A stretch of DNA of 64,000 nucleotides from Kondoa subrosea (Eukaryota): positions 310,001 through 374,000 of the forward strand of contig BCIN01000005.1 of the NCBI GenBank assembly GCA_039545335.1. The letters are read 5' to 3'. The notes beneath the pieces were generated by a model. That model was not told where the DNA came from and did not search any database. It worked only from the letters and a program-made list of their open reading frames with translations. Positions 1,926 to 56,644 of the stretch are shown in pieces. Every line of letters starts with the position of its first letter. Positions within the stretch are counted from its first letter, which is position 1. The translations under genes and the position numbers were made by a program.

Positions 1926-4900
1926 ATGGTGATGTATGAGACATCCAAAGGTGCTGACAGCTTCCTTCAACGCGTAGAATAGCAATCTCATTACTGTTCG
2001 ATCAAGTTTCTGAGGCGACAGCAGATTTGGCCTTGGACAAACCTGACGAGACGAGTTTCTGTCAATTCTTCGACAAGTTGCCTCCTACCGTCCCTGGGAC
2101 GATAAGACTCTTTGATCGTGGAGAATATTACAGCGCTCGTACGTCTGCATCTGACGCTACAGCGCATGGGTCAGATTGAATGACTTTCGAATGCAGACGG
2201 CTCTGATGCTCTGTATATTGCTGCGAACGTGTACAAGGTGCGGTCCAAGCCTATATGCAGGAATATAACTGAAAGTAAAGTTGACTAGACATCAAGTGTT
2301 CTCAAGTACTTGGGCCCCAAGAGAGATGGACCAACTTCTGGTTTACCTTCCTGCACTCTTTCCTTACAAGTAGCTAAATCTTTCCTACGCGATGCTTTGA
2401 CTTCCAAACAACTTCGAATTGAAATCTACGTTAAAGAAGGTAATGGTAAAAAGGGTAGCAAATTCGAGATTGGTCAACAAGCTTCTCCTGGAAACTTATC
2501 GGAACTAGAAGACCTACTTTTCGTTTCCGAAGACATCCTTTCTGCTCCTGTTATTGCTGCGATTCATTATACTGTTAAAGCGGGTGTCAAGACTGTCGGA
2601 GTTGCTTTTGGTGATTCTTCAGTTCGAGAGATTGGGATTTCAGAATTTCAAGACAATGACTTGTTCAGCAATGTGGAATCACTTCTTATTCAGCTAGGCA
2701 TAAAAGAAGTCGTCTTACCTGCTGTGGCTTTGGCTGATAAAGAAGGCGATAAGGCTAAAGACTACGAAGCGGACAAGCTGAGAAAGCTGTTGGCTCGTTG
2801 TAACGTGGTCGTAACTACTCGAAAGAAATGTTTGTCTCTGTTCGAACCTTTATCATTCGGTATGGTGTTTTTGATGAGAGAAACAGCTGAGTTCAAGACT
2901 ACAAGTATTCAGCAAGATCTAGATAGGCTTCTGCGCAACGATGGCAAAGTGGTATATGCCCGTAAGTCAGGGTTTACTGCTACGAAATATCACTCATATA
3001 GCTCTATTGGCTAACAGCACAATACGAACTCGAGACCGCTATGGCCTCTGCTGCAGCCCTGATCAGCTATCTATCTTTGCTGGCAGACGAATCCAACATT
3101 GGCGCGTACAAACTTCTTACTCATTCGATGGGTCAATACATGCATCTAGACGCTTCAGCTGTGCGAGCTTTACATCTTATGCCGGATCCAAATATGGGCG
3201 GCGGAAGCAAATCAATGAGCATCTTTGGGATTCTGAACAAGTGTAAGACTGCCCAAGGAACGAGATTGCTTGGTCAATGGTTGAAACAACCTGTGGTTAA
3301 TGTTCATGAGATTGAGAAAAGGCAAGATCTGGTGGAGGCTTTCGTGGAGGACAGCTTTATGCGTCAGAGCTTGCAGGTAGGTCGTGTCTCATTGTCATCG
3401 TGTGATCGCTAAAGCAGATCGTGACAGACTGAACACCTTAAAAGCATACCTGATCTAATACGCTTGACGAAGAAGTTTCAGAAAACTATCGCAAATCTTC
3501 AAGACGTGATCCGAGTCTATCAAGCTATCATTAAATTGCCTGCTTTCATCGAAACACTCGAAACTGCTGGCTCGGAATCGGGCAACAAGAAACACAATAC
3601 GCTCGTGGAGAAGGAATTTACAGCACCGCTCCGCGTGAGTTGAATACTTGGGTGAACAGCTGCGCTTATCAAGGAGTAATGCTAGGGCTTGTCTGAAGAT
3701 CTTGAAAAGTATGTTCAAATGGTTGAAGAGACCATCGATTTGGAAGAATTAGATAAGTAAGTTTTGTCGCAGCAGTAATCTGAAGGTCGTGGCTTACAGC
3801 CGAATGAGTCATCGCTATGTGATCAAAGCCGCCTTCAATGAAGAATTAGAGCAAATCAAGGAACAGCTCGATAAAACCAAAGAATCGCTTGATGAAGAAT
3901 TTGCCAACGTAGCTGAAGATCTCGGCTTTGATACCGATGGCAAGACTCTGCACTTCGAAGCGCATGCTACTTATGGCCACACTTTCCGCTTAACCCGAAA
4001 AGTAAGGTTTCGCCTGAAAGCACAACCTGGATGACGTTTTATGCTCGGAGCAGGAAAGTTCAGCTATCAAGAAGAAAGATAACAAGCTCAAATACATCGA
4101 ATTGACTAGCAAATCGAATGGGGTGCTTTTCACTACAAGAAAGCTCAAGTCTGATGTTGAAAGTTGGAAAGACTTGGAGTCGCGCTACAACAAGAAGCAA
4201 AGCACATTGGTCAAAGAGGTTGTCGGAATTGCTGGTATGTGCAGGTCATCAGTCAAGGCGATGAAGCTCATTTGACGCTGGCAGCTTCCTATTGTCCTGT
4301 TCTTGAGAACCTGAATGGCGTGTTCGCCTATCTGGATGTAATCGTCAGGTAAGTTATCGCTAGGTCAAATACGAGAAGTCTAACAGCAGGAGCAGCTTGG
4401 CTCACGTAGCTGTCAATTCGCCTACCGCTTTTGTGAAGCCTACTGTCACACCCAAAGGTGGGATTGCGTGAAACAAGTACTATCGATAGCTAATTAGGCA
4501 ACAGGCGAGGGTGATCTCGTCTTTAAGGAATCCAGACATCCTTGTCTAGAAGCTCAAGATGATGTGAATTTTATTCCAAATGATGTAGAACTGGTTCGAG
4601 GTAAGTACGAGTGTATGAGGTCTGATCTCGAACTAAGCTTTGCAACAGGCAAGAGCGAATTCAATATCATTACCGGACCGAAGTGAGCTGAAGATCATCT
4701 AGAGATTGTGCATTTTGGGCTCATTGCGACCTACAGCATGGGAGGGAAGAGCACATACATTCGACAGATCGGTGTAATAGCTCTCATGGCACAAATTGGC
4801 TCTTGGGTTCCTTGTTCGGAAGCGAAGATGCCGTGCTTTGATGCTATTCATGCCCGAGTAGGAGCTGGAGATAGTCAGATGAAAGGCATTTCTACTTTCA

Positions 4901-5734
4901 TGGCTGAGATGCTCGAGACTGCTACCATCGTATGTTTTGACTGTTCCAGTAGACATACGCTCATTGATTTCATCTGACAAAGCTCAAATCAGCAACGAAA
5001 GACTCGCTCATAATAATCGATGAGCTTGGTCGCGGAACCAGTACCTTTGATGGATTCGGCTTAGCGTGGGCTATTTCGGAAAACATCGCCAACGAGATTC
5101 GCTGCTTCTGTCTCTTTGCTACCCATTTCCATGAACTTTGTTCCTTAGCACAGCAACATGAGCAAGTCAAAAATCTACATGTCATTGCGCAGGTGGATAC
5201 AAAACCGGATTCAATAACTGGTAGAGATAGTAGGTTCTACTTCAGCGCCGAACGGATTTGGCGGCTAATCGTTGAGTTTAAGTCACATTGCTCTACAAAG
5301 TTGAAGAAGGATCATGTAAGTCGCTATATGATGCTGTATATCAATGGCGCTGATTCGTATCTGGCCTAGGTGACGAATCGTTTGGTATTCAAGTAGCCGA
5401 ACTAGCTAGTTTCCCAAAAGCTGTTGTCCATTTGGCCAAACGCAAAGCAGAAGATCTTGAATCGTTTGAAGGTACATCCAAAGTGGGGAAAGCCATGGCC
5501 GTCGACCCAGAAGTAGCTAAAGCTGGTACTTTGCTGCTGAAGAAAGTTCTTCGAGAATGGGCAGAAAAACATCAAGCGCCTTCAGATGTAACGCAAGATG
5601 GTGACGTAGAGATGTCTACTCCTGAAGATGAGACGAAAAGGAAAGTAGCTATTCTGGAAGCATGTTTCGCAGAACATAAGGAAGAGCTCATGGCTAATGC
5701 TTGGGTTGCTGCTTTGCTCAATCCGGGAGAGTAA
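1926..5734 (+). CDS. MSH2: DNA mismatch repair protein MSH2 (MutS family), multi-exon
   Basis: Spliced motifs [39 protein letters not shown] (Walker A), [42 protein letters not shown]. Confidence 0.96.
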
Positions 5735-27254: not shown

Positions 27255-28791
27255 AAATATGACTTTCACACCGAAACCAGCGAGAGCAGGAAAAGACAAA
27301 GAGAACGTCCAGCGCTGCAGCGACAATACCCGTAAATGCGATTGGATCTGGAGCATACCATCTGCCTGTGATACTAGATACCTGCTCGTCTTCACCGTTT
27401 GCTATCAAGACTCAAACCGAAATTTGAAGGCTCGCAGGGAGGTGTGATTCGAGTGGGAAGGATGACTCTTTCGCGTCAAGAGCTCAAGCGACGGGCTTTT
27501 CAAAAGGAGCAGCAGCAGAAGCAGGCCGAACAAGATAAATCTTGCGCTTTCCGTCGAGCTGAGCATCACTGGAAATCTCGCTTGGCTGCACCAGACCTAT
27601 CTGAAGCCTTCTCTCATGAGTCTGTGACATGGTTGAGCGAGGATTCTGGAAGCTGGAAGGGAAAAGAGCGAGACTATGCTGTTCAACGAGTGAAGCTCAA
27701 ATTGGATAGCCAAGCTATGGACCTTCTAGGCAGATGCGAGAATAGCGAAACTCAAGCCTACACGTTTGAAGATCTTCCAGGTGTGTTTTCTTCCTCTTCT
27801 TCCCCCTCCACAAGCTGAACGAGACCCCGATAGGCATCGTCTATATACCTTCATTACTCTCTTCTTCCGCTCAACGGTCACTTGTTGAATGTTGCTTGCT
27901 TGAAGGTCCAAGATCACCTAATATAACTTCTCTTGACCCGCATTACGATCTTCCGCTCGATGAAGGGCTCTGGCAGGCAAACGACCGAGATCCTCACTTA
28001 CCCGTCCAGAAGGTGGTCAACACTATTGCTCTAGATTCTAAACATCGAAAGCTAGTCGACCTCCCAGCCATTACGAAAGAGAACCTCGAGACGGAACGAG
28101 CGGAAGAAAGATTGCGAGATGTGAAAGCGAGCCAGAAACTCAACGGAGAGAATGTACATGTTCATGAAGTACTTGATAAGCTACGTTGGGCATCGATAGG
28201 ATTGAAATATCATGTTCGTCTATCTTTCCAGTGCTGTGATTGGCCTAATTTTATCTCAAGTGGGGAACGAAATCATACATGCTTGACTCGCCTGCGCCAG
28301 CCGTGCCTTCTCTCATATCGGACCTGTCGACCCGTATCGTTCAGAGCATACCTCCGGCTGAACTCACTCCTCCTTCGCCCGTGTGGAAGGACTATAAAGC
28401 AGAAGGAGGTCGGTTCCCTCTTCTGAGCTACGAATCGTACTGAGATGATCGCAATTCAGGCATCATCAACTTCTATAGACCAAGAGATACCCTTTGCGCG
28501 CATATAGATCATTCCGAAGCTTCTTTACGCCCTTTAATCTCTTTCTCACTTGGACTTAGTGCTATCTTCTTGGTCGGCGGAACAACAAGGGATGAGAGAC
28601 CATTACCTATCCTGCTGAGAAGTGGGGATGTCTTGATCATGAGTGGGAAAGGAAGAAGAGTGTTTCATGGTGTTCCAAGGATATTGGAAGAAGGTCGAGT
28701 TGAGGGATTGCAAGGAAAGATGGGAGAATGGATGGAGAAGAGACGGATCAACGTCAACGTCAGACAAGTTTGGCCTGGTGAAGAAGATTGA
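27255..28791 (+). repeat. Left arm of a ~1.5-kb inverted repeat (alkB gene plus ~200 bp upstream)
   Basis: Reverse-complement match to ~51380-52900 across exons, introns and promoter; similarity ends at the TGA stop. Confidence 0.95.
27462..28791 (+). CDS. AlkB-family 2OG-Fe(II) dioxygenase, ALKBH1-like (copy 1)
   Basis: LRWASIGLKYHWGTKSY, GIINFYRPRDTLCAHIDHSE (HxD), LRSGDVLIMSG..RRVFHGVPRI (H), RINVNVRQV (RxxxxxR); three introns. Confidence 0.92.
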
Positions 28792-42777: not shown

Positions 42778-44590
42778 ATGAGCCGAAAGATGCTCGATGC
42801 GTATACCCCTAGTCTCATCAAGCTTAAGCCTGGCTTCCTATTGGCAGCAACAGCTTCGACTGGACCTTTGATGTTACAAAGTGCTTGTGATGTCTATTGG
42901 TCAGGAGTACACGGCTAAGAGCTGCTTCGATAGATACCCTGTCATTAGATCGACTGCACATTGCCTTGATTCAAATTCTTCTCCTCTTTCTTGCAAATCT
43001 GTTCGCGAAAGTTTGGGCTGGGTCACCAGCCATTGAAGCTTCTCCTTCGTCTGTCTCAGCATCCTCCTCTTCCGTTAGAGCAGTTCCTCCGAAACCAATA
43101 GTAGTGGATCGACCTGTACCTGTGCCGATTCCTGGACCAAGTGTGACAAAGGAGATCGTCATAAGTAAGTGCTTGTTCGGACCTGTCCTCCGTATATTGA
43201 TGGACTTTTGTAGAACCAAACAAGTCTATCAAAACAACTATCGTCAGGCAAGAGCATCCAAGCTATTCTGACAAGTTCTTGGACGGAGTCTTGCATCGCT
43301 TTCTAACGTTCGCCGACCCCGGTGCACTTTCTGTACTACCTTCAGTGGAGAACGAATTACCAGAAACAGATCGTATAGCAATATCTGATTGGATTCGCTT
43401 ATTTGAAAACGATATTCTTACCGTCAGCTCCCATCCAACTCTTAATGGCTTATATTCCATCACTACTATCTTCCCATCTCTTTCTCTTCGATCTTTATGG
43501 GAATTGATGCTGTCGATCGAATCAAGAACGGACTGGGATAATAGTTGCGAGCAGACTCAGCACTTGGAAGATATTGGACCGCTTTGTTCAAACAGTGCTT
43601 CGGTTTCAGCCAGACAAGCTTCAGTCAGCTATTTAGGTTGGTGATACTTCTTTGAGTCAGCTTGCACGATCTTGATGTGTTTGAACAGCCCTCAAATCCA
43701 TGTTTCCGATCAAACCCAGAGACATGGTCCTTCTTTCCGTTCTCGCTCGACTGGAACCTGTTGAAATAAATGGCAAATTGTGTCAAAGACTCGTTTCAGC
43801 TACCACAAGCGTGGATCACCCTTTGAAACCTGCTCAATCGGGTTATCAACGGATGATGATTTCCAATTCTGGATTTCTGGCAGAAGAGTTGCCTGAAGGT
43901 GGATGTAGATTGATGCAGGTATCTGACCTATCAGGTTTAGGTAGCTGGAGTGAGTTCTACTTCATTGTTGAACATGTAGAAATGTTGATCTGGACATTGA
44001 ATAGTTCCACAAAAGATCCTGAACACTATTACTCAGAAAGTCTTACCCAAGTCATTGGTAGAGCTAGGTATCGCTGCGGAGAAGATGACTTATTCGCCCG
44101 AAAGACAAGCATTGAAGGGCGATAAGTGGTATCCTCCGCTGTTAACAAACATTTACACTTCAATATCAGTAAATGATGAACTAGAAGACTCATCTTCATC
44201 TTCTGGTTCAGACGTAGACGAACCAGAAGGAGAAAAGAGAACAGCAGCGGAAGATCGAGCGGTAGCTTTATTGGAAGAACAATTACGAACAACAAATCAA
44301 CGATTAGCTCAATTAGAGAAGGAGAAATCTACTACGACCAATGCTGCTCTTTCGGCGGTAGCTTTGCAATCTAAGAACAAGAGATGGTTCAGCTGGTTAT
44401 GGCCAACTCAGAACAAAGCGAAACAAGATCCTGGTTTAGTGTTACGAACAACTTTCGCCAGTGCTATCGGAGGTGCCACTGGCGCAGCTGCAGGTGAGAG
44501 CTTTCTCAATGTTTTTTCAAAGATAAGCCTTGATTCGCTTTATAGTAATTGCTTTCGCCATCGTTTGGGCTCGAAGACGCTTGTAGATTA
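42778..44590 (+). CDS. START/SRPBCC lipid-binding domain membrane protein
   Basis: RTDWDNSCE, MFPIKPRDMVLLS, VSATTSVDHP, LMQVSDLSGLGSWVP; hydrophobic segments at both ends; start approximate. Confidence 0.78.
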
Positions 44591-51379: not shown

Positions 51380-52708
51380 TCAATCTTCCTCACCAGGCCA
51401 AACTTGTCTGACGTTGACGTTGATCCGTCTCTTCTCCATCCATTCTTCCATCTTTCCTTGCGATCCCTCAACTCGACCTTCTTCCAATATCCTTGGAACA
51501 CCATGAAACACTCTTCTTCCTTTTCCACTCATGATCAAGACATCTCCACTTCTCAGCAGAATAGGTAATGGTTGTTCATCCCTTGTTGTTCCGCCGACCA
51601 AGAAGATAGCACTAAGGCCAAGTGAGAAAGAAATCAAAGGTCGTAAAGAAGCTTCAGAATGGTCTATATGGGCGCAAAGGGTATCTTTTGGTCTATAGAA
51701 GTTGATGATGCCTGAATTGCGATCATCTCAGTACGATTCGTAGCTCAGAAGAGGGAACCGACCTCCTTCTGCTTTATAGTCCTTCCACACGGGCGAAGGA
51801 GGAGTGAGTTCAGCCCAAGGTATGCTCTGAACGATACGGGTCGACAGGTCCGATATGAGAGAAGGCACGGCTGGCGCAGGCGAGTCAAGCATGTATGATT
51901 TCGTTCCCCACTTGAGATAAAATTAGGCCAATCACAGCACTGGAAAGATAGACGAACATGATATTTCAATCCTATCGATGCCCATCGCAGCTTATCAAGT
52001 ACTTCATGAATAGGTACATTCTCTCCGTTGAGTTTCTGGCTCGCTTTCACATCTCGCAATCTTTCTTCCGCTCGTTCCGTCTCGAGGTTCTCTTTCGTAA
52101 TGGCTGGTAAATCGACTAGCTTTCGGTGTGTAGAATCTAGAGCAATAGTGTTGACCACCTTCTGAACGGGTAAGTGAGGATCTCGCTCGTTTGCCTGCCA
52201 AAGCCCTTCATCAAGCGGAAGATCGTAATGCGGGTCAAGAGAAGTCATGTTAGGCGATTTTGGACCTTCAAGCAAGCAGCATTCAACTAGTGACCGTTGA
52301 GCGGAAGAAGAGAGTAATGATGGTATATACAGGATGCCTGTCGAGATCTCGTTCAGCTTGCGGACAGGAAAAAGAGGAAGAAAACACACCTGGAAGGTCT
52401 TCAAACGTGTAGGCTTGACTTTCGCTACTCTCGGATCTGCCTAGAAGGTCCATAGCTTGCCTATCCAATTTGAGTTTCACTCGTTGAACAGCATAGTCTC
52501 GCTCTTTTCCCTTCCAGCTTCCACAATCCTGGCTCAACCATGTAACAGACTCATGAGAGAAGGCTTCAGATAGGTCCGGTGCAGCTAAGCGAGATTTCCA
52601 GTGATGCTCAGCTCGACGGAAAGCGCAAGATTGATCTTGTTCGGCCTGCTTCTGCTGCTGTTCCTTTTGCAAAGCCCGTCGCTTGAGCTCTTGACGCGAT
52701 AGAGTCAT
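51380..52708 (-). CDS. AlkB-family dioxygenase, ALKBH1-like (copy 2, inverted)
   Basis: Same exon structure and catalytic motifs as 27462-28791; I saw no stop or frameshift. Confidence 0.92.
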
Positions 52709-52900
52709 CCTTTCGCGCGCTCCACACCTCCCTTCGAGCCTTCGAATTTCGGTTTTGAGTCGTTGACAGCAAACGGTCAACACGAGCAGGTATCTGGTTT
52801 CACAGGCAGATGATATGCTTCAGATCCAATCGCATATACGGGTATTACGGCTTCTCTCTGTCCTTTCCTGCTCTCGCTCGTTTCGGTGCAAGACTCGTTT
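51380..52900 (-). repeat. Right arm of the ~1.5-kb inverted repeat
   Basis: Reverse complement of ~27255-28791. Confidence 0.95.
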
Positions 52901-53529
52901 TCTTTATTGTAAATTAGTGTTGCTTGTTTGCTATGTGTTCCGTTTGCTGGCTCCTATGCCTCTTTCCTCCTGTGCTGTGTTTGCGTTCCCTTCTGCCTGG
53001 ACAGTTCTGTATTTGCTATGGACAAGACAACTTGGAAGTAGCTGCTGTTCGGCTCTTTCTCTCATCTCACATGTCAACGAGGAAGTAGACAGTATTAGTC
53101 ACTACTTGCTGCACGAGGTGTGATCCGCTCGAATTCGAAATTGGATCGATAGATGGACAAATTGGCATGCTGTATCAAGTGACAAGGCGATCTGATTCAG
53201 ACTTCGAAGATCAGACATGTGGTGCAAATTATCGAGAGGGAAAGAAGTAGCGATAGTATTAATGTATATTTCATATTGCATTGAGCACAAAGAAGATAGT
53301 CTATCGCATAATTCAAAGTCACAGCAATTTGACAGACCTTCCCTTGAAAGATGGAACGGAAATCCTAGTAGCTTCATATTCTTATCGTTAAACAGGGTGG
53401 AGAGGGTTCATAATACTTCGAAGCAGCTTCACTTTACAATGCAGAAAGTCGGTGAATCGAGTGTGGACCATAGGCCATTGAGGTTAATTCAGAGAAAGTA
53501 TATGCAATGCAAGAGAAGGAAAGAGAAGA

Positions 53530-53825
53530 AGAAGGGTTGCCGAGAAGAGACAGCGTCTCTTTGCTGAGAAGGGATCTTGCTCCCTGTGTCGCCGAGTGCT
53601 GTCCGGTTTTCCAAAGCTGGCAGACGGGTTGCCCAGTCGTCCATGCTGTCCAAAAGGAGGAGATCTAAAGGGGAGAACTGGATTCGCCAGTCTCTTGATC
53701 CCTGATCTTCCAAGAAAGAGAGAGCTCCAGTGCAGCGCGCAGAGATAGGGAAAAGACCGCGCCTGAACACGCGGCCACCGCATATCCTCTGGCTCTCTCT
53801 TCCTTGGTGCAGTAGCAACACCTGT
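53530..53825 (-). ncRNA. Candidate structured non-coding RNA, class unknown
   Basis: GC-rich intergenic island with several stems that contain G-U wobbles on the minus strand, a GCAA tetraloop and complementary 5'/3' ends. Confidence 0.4.
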
Positions 53826-54398
53826 CATGTATATAAAGAATGAGATGGGCAATGAGGAATGCTAAGAGCCAAAAACTTACTCGAATAGGTTAAGCAGGAC
53901 CAGGTGATAGGGCGTGATGCTATATCGCTGTAGATATCAAGACATTAGTGAAGGCATGACAAGTGACCATCGTGGACAAGAACAAGAGCAGCAAAATTCG
54001 CCTTTTCTGTGAGATTCCGATATTTTGATTGTCTTCCTGTCCAGCCAGCCAGCTATGTCTGATCTTGTGCCCTGAGCTAGCAATACGCGACAGCTTCCGC
54101 GCCTGATGCCTGGTCCCTGTATGCCTTTCCTGTCCTGCTGGGGACCGCCGAACAGTCTTTTGGATTCCCGCTTTCTGCTGTCTATTTCTGCCCTGTTCTA
54201 GCTCTAGCCTGTTTGTCGAAATGTCAATGACTGTTGCTCTGCATTGTTGTACTGTACGATGCTGCTGCCCAGCAGTCGTTTGACTTGGCGTTTTCTGGCT
54301 TATCCAAAAATAGCCGCCCATTAAACGTCACAGGCTCTCTTGCTCGCTTTTTTTCTCTTTACTACTGGCAGCGACTCCCAGTGGGAAGCCTAAGCTCG

Positions 54399-56644
54399 AT
54401 GCATTTCTTTAAGAAAGCCTTTGGACCAGAAACAACAGATGAGAAAGCTCAACCAAGAAGAACTGCTCAAGGTTTAATCCGACATCCCCTTGTCAGGCAA
54501 TATGTGCACGATAATACAGTGTACAGGGAAGCTGGAGAAAGAGAGCCATCAAGATTTGAGCTGTTTTACGAGTGAGCAATTTCAGAGCTCGGACTTGCGC
54601 TAGAATGCTGACAAGCTATACAGTCTTCTCGTGAGCGGAAGCTAAACAATCCGAGAATCTTTATGCTGAAAATGGTACAGTATGTAGGCGTATTCAGGCA
54701 ACTCGGTCATATTGTAGAAGCTGGATACACTGGCATCAATCTTGCGGTTTTTGTTTTGGTACTCTTTGCGTAAGTATGATTCATGCCGGCTTGAGTCTCT
54801 TCTCAACCCTGGTTTTTAGAGCTTGGAGTATCTGGTGCGAAACAAGGAATTTTATCAACATTTGTGGGACGGACGATCTACTTCAGCGACTCATGATTCT
54901 CTTGATCATGGCTCTCACTGTCGGATATACTGTCAATGCAGCTGGAATTCACGAAGAAGAAGGACATGTCAATATTGAAACCTTGAAACCTGCAATGGTC
55001 TTCTTCATTATCGCTCGCGCAGTCCGATGGTTCTTCTCCCTTGGTTACATGATAGCTCTACCTCGATTCAGGAGCTCCTTCTTCGGCTATGCTGTATTAC
55101 AAATCGTGGCTATCGGTATCTATCTACCTCTTATCTTTACTGGCGAAAATGAGAAGGTCTTTTGGATTTTGATGAGCTTGGGTATGGCTTTCGAGCTCTT
55201 GATTCGGTATTCATCCGGTAAGCTAGCTAATACCTTTGTTTATGCTGTGTCTAACAATTGCTTGCAGCTTTGTGGCCATCTGCCGAATATACACCTTGCT
55301 TGGCTTTAGGTTTGTTGTCTATGTCTTTGTAAACGATCTTCTCTTGAGATGACTGCTTGAACAGATCATTACATTGAACGGATCCATCTATTCGTCATCA
55401 TTGCGATCGGAGAGTGAGTGTTTGTGTCTGCCTACTGAATCGATGCTTACAGAGCGACTTCAGGATGGTCCTGAATGTGTTCTATTTGGGTAGTGTAGAA
55501 GAAGGAAACGCAGGACTAGTACATCTTCTCTTCCTGCCGGCTCAGAAATTTAGCTGACTCATTTGTGAAGGGCAACAATATGTATTGGAAATCTTGCCTA
55601 GCTTTGATCATCGCTTTTGGACTGTGTTGGATCTTCTTGTGAGCGCTCCTTTGCGATCTTTCAAATGAAGCATTCATTTATCTGTATTGTTGGCAGCGAT
55701 TCGTATGTCCCTCACCAATAGCCAGACTTGATTGTCTGACAGTCTGTCATAGCGACAACTCGGTCACTTACCTTCACGCCCTTCGCCGGAATTATATTGC
55801 GTGAGCAATCTTGCCTCAAAGAAGCTTTGAAACTGACCTCGATCTTCTGCATCAGAGCACTGACTGTCGCCAACCTTCACTTCCCTCTCGTCGCTGGTAT
55901 TGTCTTAGCCGGTGCATCAGTAGCGACTCTGATTGAGGAGAATGAGCTGCCAGAAGGAGGAGTGAGTGTCATTTGCCTCCTCCGAAAAGACTTCAGCTTA
56001 TTCTTATTAGGTGAAATGGATGTTTGGAGGTGGTCTCGCTGTTGCTATGGGCAGTTTGGCTTGCATTGGACTTATGCACAAATCACTTGATCGCAAAGGT
56101 TCAGCCTTGATGGATGTAAGTTTCGCTCTCTTTCAGTCACATACATCCAACTAAAACTGTGCGCAGCCTACACTGGTCCAAATATTCCGTCTTCTGGTCG
56201 CGATTATCTTTGCTGTCTTGCCTTTAAGTCATCATCTCGACACGTCGACTAAACTACTCGGTACCTATGCTGGTCTCACGTTTGTTGTGGTAGCCTTTGA
56301 GCTGCTTTCATCGCTTGGAGCTCAAGCAGAACATCCGCATCTTCTGCCTTCTTCGTTAGTCATTGTGTCTGTTTCTGTTTGGTCCAAGGGCTGATTTGTC
56401 TCTGACAGAGTCATCCCGATGGCTAGAGTCGATGGCGAGGATTTCGAAATTGGGGCCAGAACTCGTCTGCACGCTATGTTGACTGATGCTGAGAGGTATG
56501 CAACATTGATTGATCTCATAAAGCTAAACTTATGTGTTTTCTTGCAGAGGAGAAGAAGATCTTGGAGGTGAATCTGGTATGGCTGAATTCAAGCCGCTTC
56601 ATACCAACAGGGGAGGAGCAAAGGCTGCATCAAGAGCTGCTTAA
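54399..56644 (+). CDS. LtrA (low temperature requirement A) family polytopic membrane protein
   Basis: PLVRQY...SRFELFYDLLYVG, GTDDLLQRL, HYIERIHLFVIIAIGE, WIFFDSDNS..YLHALRR; many introns, including two micro-exons. Confidence 0.85.

Follow-up and report, generated by a model that had tools for sequence, protein, structure and literature searches.

The locus at positions 53530-53825 raises the question whether a densely folded intergenic stretch encodes a structured non-coding RNA (ncRNA) and, if so, to which RNA family it belongs. It lies in the window, i.e., the whole 64,000-nt stretch of DNA analyzed here (C5:310001-374000), in a genome of 18.9 Mb and 27 contigs. Among named organisms, the closest relatives of an EF3-like exon are those of Mixia osmundae (50%) and of rust fungi (36-45%), which identifies the organism as a Pucciniomycotina basidiomycete. 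The gene labels MSH2-like, EF3-like, ALKBH1-like and phytochrome are those which we assume for the genes concerned. The element is located in a 1.7-kb gap between two genes. Downstream by 640 nt and on the same strand is a 2OG-Fe(II) dioxygenase gene (51380-52888, minus strand; Pfam PF13532, E 2e-26), which we take to be ALKBH1-like. The divergent upstream neighbour is an exon for an LtrA-like membrane protein (54635-55309, plus strand; Pfam PF06772, E 9.7e-06, under the cut-off). The dioxygenase gene has an inverted duplicate 22.6 kb apart (27269-28791, plus strand), which is 93% identical and has retained the introns. The structured element is absent from this second copy.

The fold of the minus strand of 53530-53825 is real and unusual. 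The preliminary description of this locus had proposed a comparison with shuffled sequences, in which the element was found to be the more stable (-118.7 kcal/mol, z -2.77, none of 200 shuffles equally stable). For the plus strand, 20 of 200 shuffles were equally stable (z -1.38). Among the 430 tiles of 296 nt in the window, which were registered on the coordinates of the preliminary description, the element ranks first by energy, and its tile also has the highest GC content of all 430 (56%, both strands tied); the corresponding regression z of -4.4 is an extrapolated value. With unregistered tiles of 150 nt, the best piece of the element ranks second of 852 by energy and twelfth of 852 by the gap to shuffles. 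The folding signal is carried by two of the four arms described below, arm 1 and arm 4. The larger unspliced region of 396 nt reaches a z of -1.24. For the plus strand, a rod-and-fork fold of 53495-53830 was discarded; its z is -1.17 and it shows no SRP motifs.

The predicted fold consists of four arms and a closing stem, with pair probabilities mostly above 0.8. Arm 1 (53710-53807, minus strand, as are all parts of the fold) is a Y-shaped arm of 98 nt (z -4.47, 0 of 200 shuffles) on the 16-bp stem with one G-U pair that had been recognized before (53807-53792 with 53725-53710, probability 0.97). The inner pairing proposed inside this stem was not recovered (0.12); its place is taken by a 10-bp helix with three G-U pairs (0.84). 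Arm 2 (53661-53708, z -1.82) is a hairpin of 48 nt that carries two asymmetric loops besides a loop of 5 nt, and corresponds to the AGAUC hairpin of the preliminary description, which was found again with pair probabilities of 0.81-0.95. It is followed by a small 3-bp hairpin seen in the pair probabilities (53658-53649) and by arm 3 (53647-53615, z -1.77). The outer helices of arm 3 are well defined (0.94-0.99), whereas the GCAA tetraloop ascribed to it is formed with a probability of 0.44, versus 0.55 for a 3-nt loop. Arm 4 (53548-53604, z -3.54, 1 of 200 shuffles) is a local hairpin of the unspliced form. The stem of its proposed GACAGC/GCUGUC hairpin is present (53604-53598 with 53554-53548, 0.92), but in place of the CAGG/AGCA loop a 5-bp helix forms (0.98). 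The closing stem of the unspliced form (53823-53814 with 53541-53533, 0.93-0.94) includes the end pairing already noticed (53819-53814 with 53541-53536, 0.94). The two strands of a suggested alternative 7-bp pairing are complementary, yet the pairing does not appear among the helices with a probability above 0.1.

Two small loops on the minus strand, a U4 loop (53655-53652) and an A4 loop (53610-53607), could kiss. The same 8-nt word follows each of them (53651-53644 and 53604-53597); these are two of its four copies in the window, where 2.5 are expected.

The strand had been deduced from irregular pairs that are G-U on the minus strand and A-C on the plus strand. Only in the big stem is this argument borne out (-49.5 for the minus versus -38.8 for the plus strand), whereas the other three hairpins are strand-neutral (-16.1/-17.0, -12.6/-12.3 and -21.8/-23.7 for minus/plus). 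The strand is fixed better by an adjoining intron that had been missed. From its signals (GTAAGT, a CTCAT branch and CAG), a spliceosomal-type intron of 59 nt is predicted at 53822-53880 on the minus strand. It ends at 53822, one base short of the fold, which it thus abuts, and it runs in the direction of the strand that folds better. The intron pattern was found five times in the window (both strands, 64 kb), with 1.55 matches expected from shuffles, and a comparison by eye revealed introns with the same signals and lengths in the gene at 2900-5500. The intron also holds a T5 run (53875-53871) and a TATA-like word. On the plus strand, a canonical TATA box (53832-53840) sits within the same interval, and a divergent plus-strand start near 53865 is possible.

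Upstream of the intron, a first exon is predicted at 53881-53973 on the minus strand, with its 5' end placed tentatively. It contains a UGUNR-type pentamer (53961-53957) and the 5' strands of several long-range helices. Folded alone, it is unstructured (z +1.87). Joined to the second exon, three helices can be drawn, i.e., a junction helix of 10 bp with two G-U pairs (53884-53881 plus 53821-53816 with 53601-53592, all standard pairs), an outer helix of 13 interrupted bp (53901-53885 with 53587-53573) and an end-closing stem of 6 bp (53931-53926 with 53555-53550). All 29 colinear long-range pairs are standard, four of them G-U. These pairs were picked by eye, so a control with slid partners (28-55% paired) favours the spliced form by construction. 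The unspliced region, when folded, does not form them, and they exclude arm 4, which is itself significant. The spliced fold is thus put forward as a hypothesis that rests on complementarity drawn by eye.

The predicted start is near 53973, as judged from the DNA before it. The stretch 54000-53974 (minus strand) shows a CGAA followed by a pyrimidine tract that ends just before the start, and it can be aligned, in register, with the sequence immediately upstream of the U1 copies and of the RNase MRP RNA gene of this genome. In its upstream DNA the element thus resembles the MRP gene. Pyrimidine tracts are generic, so the likeness to a promoter is weak. A T5 run was sought on the minus strand from 53870 to 52374, i.e., to about 1.1 kb past the element, and none was found. 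Together with the T5 run inside the intron, this makes RNA polymerase II (Pol II) likelier than Pol III. According to the model, Pol II would start near 53973 and the spliceosome would remove 53880-53822. The joining of the exons would then let the junction and the first exon zip onto 53601-53550, replacing arm 4 and the closing stem. Once mature, the RNA would measure about 365 nt and take the form of an irregular rod with a terminal fork of three arms, and it may serve as a protein scaffold, matured in the way that the RNase MRP RNA of the same genome appears to be. Before splicing, the AG of the 3' splice site is paired within the closing stem with a probability of 0.93, and by hiding this AG the unspliced fold may bring folding and splicing into competition.

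The stretch 53530-53825 is probably the second exon of a single-copy ncRNA gene on the minus strand, whose transcript we infer. As the best reading we tentatively propose a spliced, structured RNA of the Pol II type, about 365 nt long, which stands outside the families tested. This retains the structured ncRNA on the minus strand that had been proposed before, while its boundaries probably reach about 150 nt further upstream, across the intron. A more far-reaching version seems unlikely, namely that it is an essential RNP RNA, either a radically remodelled Pol II SRP RNA or a lineage-specific new class, which takes on its mature fold only after splicing and whose unspliced fold is a splice-site-hiding switch.

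Genes for structured RNAs that appear to be split were found elsewhere in this genome. The RNase MRP RNA gene (C2, about 990633-991691, minus strand of its locus; 48.5 bits, E 1.2e-11) is about 1 kb long and contains an insertion of about 800 nt. Near its 5' end is a 58-nt spliceosomal-type intron, the removal of which creates 13 unbroken Watson-Crick pairs with the 3' end (gene columns 14-22, 81-84 and 1060-1072). A candidate for the RNase P RNA was detected on C6 (at 398888, within a span of about 398840-399745, plus strand; 22.2 bits, below the cut-off of 28). It is about 900 nt long and shows CR-I, II, IV and V. By eye, the last conserved region, CR-V, is split by a 53-nt intron (2280-2332 of the locus, in which the candidate spans 1452-2356), and an end helix of 13 bp can be drawn; another intron is probably present near the 5' end. 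In both genes as in the element, the removal of a short spliceosomal-type intron would complete a helix, so that the element may resemble them in its biogenesis, and since the MRP and RNase P genes appear to be intron-split, the spliced model still seems the best one for the element. The completed helix of the element would have 10 bp with two G-U pairs, versus the 13 Watson-Crick pairs of the MRP gene. Unlike these genes, the element is much shorter and has none of their conserved regions. The likeness of its intron to the MRP intron is no greater than intron composition gives, and one search pattern was fitted to this locus and the MRP gene together, which makes its specificity circular. Spliceosomal introns in small structured RNA genes of basidiomycete yeasts are not without parallel. 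Takahashi is said to have described, in 1993 and 1996, mRNA-type introns in the U1, U2 and U5 snRNA genes of Rhodotorula hasegawae. In contrast to those host genes, the element is no recognizable snRNA.

A snR47-like snoRNA (59.8 bits) lies 160 nt downstream of the MRP gene, and a sequence similar to a box C/D snoRNA is located directly behind the RNase P candidate.

No known RNA family could be matched to the element. The preliminary description had suggested a search of the cmscan type against Rfam; at gathering score it gave no match in the window, and around the element two and three chance-level matches at E up to 10. A resemblance to RNase P had also been pointed out, which found no support, as the CR-I-like word has no partner strand and the candidates for RNase P and MRP RNA are located on other contigs. 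An identity as RNase MRP RNA was rejected, with the CR-I/CR-V strands that form P4 absent at the element. Four copies of U1 snRNA were identified elsewhere (46 bits, under the cut-off); the end that pairs with the 5' splice site and the Sm site of U1 are, by eye, missing at the element. A block of about 75 nt is identical in two of these copies (1710-1784 in each locus); it stops some 30 nt upstream of the start (z -0.70). For U2, U4, U5 and U6, no Rfam match was obtained around the element at E up to 10, and the hallmark motifs were compared in the form that we take to be their consensus, as for the RNase P regions. A tRNA search gave no match. U3 and other box C/D RNAs were rejected, with no TGATGA within 1.2 kb of the element and no model match there; the sole match of the U3 model (E 0.6) was not convincing. 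For snR30/U17, the m2 motif as given in Table 1 of PMC7601244 was not found in or near the element at up to one mismatch, and m1 from the same table was compared by eye, leading to rejection. Resemblances to the TPP riboswitch P5, group I and II introns, U14, 7SK and Y RNA are short, out of order and not supported by Rfam.

Telomerase RNA was likewise rejected, since none of the 21 matches to the telomere repeat falls in the window. The telomere-like arrays of this genome consist of two alternating 10-nt units instead of TTAGGG, and were found at the starts of C1, C2, C3 and C6 and at the ends of C2 and C4. An internal copy of about 1.5 repeats at C2:1399256 (plus strand) looks like a telomerase RNA template and is a candidate for this gene; another such internal copy is present at C5:193686 (minus strand).

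The family that deserves the closest comparison is the SRP RNA, the only essential RNA of this size which no single motif sufficed to dismiss and which was not located elsewhere in this genome, either with Rfam models or, among the matches examined in context, with helix-8 patterns. The element would then be the strongly diverged, intron-split SRP RNA of this fungus. The UGUNR-type pentamer near the guessed start would represent a reduced Alu domain and the spliced rod helix 5, whose lateral hairpins would resemble helices 10 and 11. A bulge on its 3' strand would resemble 5e, and the fork would be an enlarged S domain that may bind Srp19 and Srp54. The size and the rod-plus-fork topology of the spliced form agree loosely with this, and helix 5, which is absent from the unspliced fold, can be drawn by eye with 29 pairs in the spliced form, where a 4-nt bulge lies in the 3' strand 10 bp below the fork. 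Arm 3, the last arm, can carry a GNRA loop; it resembles helix 6, yet it is the last arm of the spliced fork, whereas helix 6 precedes helix 8 on the 5' side. The UGUNR word, however, is common by chance near a guessed 5' end, and a stable hairpin is absent there.

Basidiomycete SRP RNAs are known to escape the standard models and to have an altered helix 8 (PMC4605306). In helix 8, an A-C pair is kept in 152 of 152 basidiomycete sequences, and conserved adenosines occur in the loops of both helix 6 and helix 8 (PMC4605306). The C. neoformans SRP RNA ends in poly-U, and no SRP RNA intron was reported in C. neoformans, U. maydis or M. violaceum (PMC4605306). Like these RNAs (PMC4605306), the element is about 300 nt long, intergenic and invisible to Rfam RF01502. 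It may share with them a 5' UGUNR and, once spliced, an irregular long helix that bears side hairpins and forks at its distal end. Unlike them, it has no recognizable helix 8, no poly-U end, a shorter rod, an extra arm of 98 nt and a predicted intron, and the T5 run in this intron would stop Pol III. The Fungi_SRP and Metazoa_SRP covariance models did not match, which is a weak test as known basidiomycete SRP RNAs are also missed.

The preliminary description had drawn an SRP S domain with helix 8 at 53604-53548. As drawn, it did not stand, with no GNRA tetraloop, no stem beside CAGG/AGCA, no long helix 5 and no poly-U end. The arms were compared by eye with helix 8, where a tetraloop with A at position 4 is followed by a short stem, a loop with the invariant A-C pair, a second stem and an asymmetric loop; the human consensus used for it is one that we assume. 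In arm 4 the loop measures 11 nt and CAGG/AGCA has no stem beneath it, arm 3 has a tetraloop but with Watson-Crick pairs under it, and arm 2 has a 5-nt loop and only a slipped A-C. The succession of tetraloop, short stem, A-C loop and stem was thus found in none of the arms. For this reason the element was not filed as SRP RNA. That it is the SRP RNA of this fungus appears rather unlikely, and the same holds for the idea that it may still work like one. Genome-wide, helix-8 patterns gave 43, 31 and 24 matches (98 in total), and none was SRP-like among the 30 (6, 20 and 4) examined in context. The true SRP gene could itself be intron-split or lie in unassembled rDNA (PMC9849065). A literature search revealed no report of a spliced, Pol II-made SRP RNA without canonical helix 8, and a search on SRP RNA introns in Rhodotorula found none.

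Apart from an independent RNA gene, the fold might act in cis for the dioxygenase gene, as part of a long leader or of its first intron. In this case, the closing stem would mask the near 3' splice site (53822), and splicing would shift to a far AAG (53432), so that the whole fold is removed within a 449-nt intron, tuning the leader. The pairing of the splice-site AG in the closing stem fits this explanation, as do the position of the dioxygenase gene on the same strand and a partly pyrimidine-rich tract of 123 nt after the fold that is free of AG (53434-53556, minus strand). The AAG behind this tract (53434-53432) could be a distal 3' splice site or belong to the start region of the next gene. 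However, the far site and its branch are weak, the second dioxygenase copy does without the element, and the long-range complementarity to the first exon is left unexplained. We consider a cis-acting role improbable. About equally improbable is that the stretch has no function at the RNA level and is a GC-rich relic of an old mobile element or a decayed gene, or an exon of a small orphan protein gene, with stems made by purine and pyrimidine tracts. The best stem does consist of low-complexity GA/CU tracts, the z is moderate, and some unregistered tiles elsewhere have similar gaps to shuffles. No conservation was found, and all three minus frames are open for at least 51 codons. On the other hand, open frames are uninformative here because all three are open, and neither a repeat family nor a Pfam or credible database relative was detected. 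For an orphan gene, the ATG at 53970 would have to be joined by a weak 40-nt intron and the 59-nt intron to a frame of 68 codons, but the donor of the 40-nt intron is poor, and the relaxed intron pattern does not recognize it.

A degenerate HDV-like self-cleaving ribozyme, with its first G at 53821 and arms 1 and 2 inserted in J1/2, would be a further explanation, which we regard as very improbable. The nested double pseudoknot typical of such ribozymes can be drawn for the element by eye (23 of 23 pairs standard), with a G-U at +1, a P1.1 containing two C-G pairs and a P3 of 3 bp. But the descriptor in PMC6326823 gives L3 with U..CG and J4/2 as CRRA, whereas here the conserved CG is missing from L3 and J4/2 deviates from CRRA. 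Moreover, P1 has six pairs, P2 contains a mismatch and three G-U pairs, arm 3 as a stronger competing hairpin (0.94-0.99) sequesters the strands, and Rfam gave no match around the element.

The search for homologues, which had also been suggested, brought neither a homologue nor a paralogue or covariation. At the DNA level, a search of its own genome returned the locus itself only, so the element is single-copy. With a covariance model built from arms 2-3 of this one sequence, the window gave no match but the arms themselves, and 41 genome loci (125 kb) gave none. In metagenomes, a 24-nt word had no match, and none of 367 pattern matches was accompanied by a relative of the neighbouring dioxygenase exon; phages gave no match. 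Words of 19 and 21 nt had a match in one viral and one bacterial contig, respectively, with no likeness beyond the word, i.e., by chance. The collections contain no close relative, and missing conservation therefore says little. For the three minus frames no credible protein relative was obtained (no match in one search, a best value of 0.77 in the atlas, and no Pfam match in any of the three frames); another search gave two weak protein matches, the better of which is a match to a tandem repeat, summed over 11 stretches.

We conclude that the element has an unusual fold and is probably the second exon of a spliced ncRNA without a match among the known RNA families. Should the RNA be real, introns split the very helices on which covariance models rely, which would explain why ncRNAs are missed in this fungal lineage. 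If it were the SRP RNA, it would be spliced, apparently made by Pol II, and would lack a canonical helix 8, which is the best-conserved part of SRP. As a new class, it would add to several orphan folds of this genome. By composition-adjusted energy, the second most structured region of the window is located at 43762-44353, with z of about -2.3 to -2.5 on both strands, and overlaps open frames.
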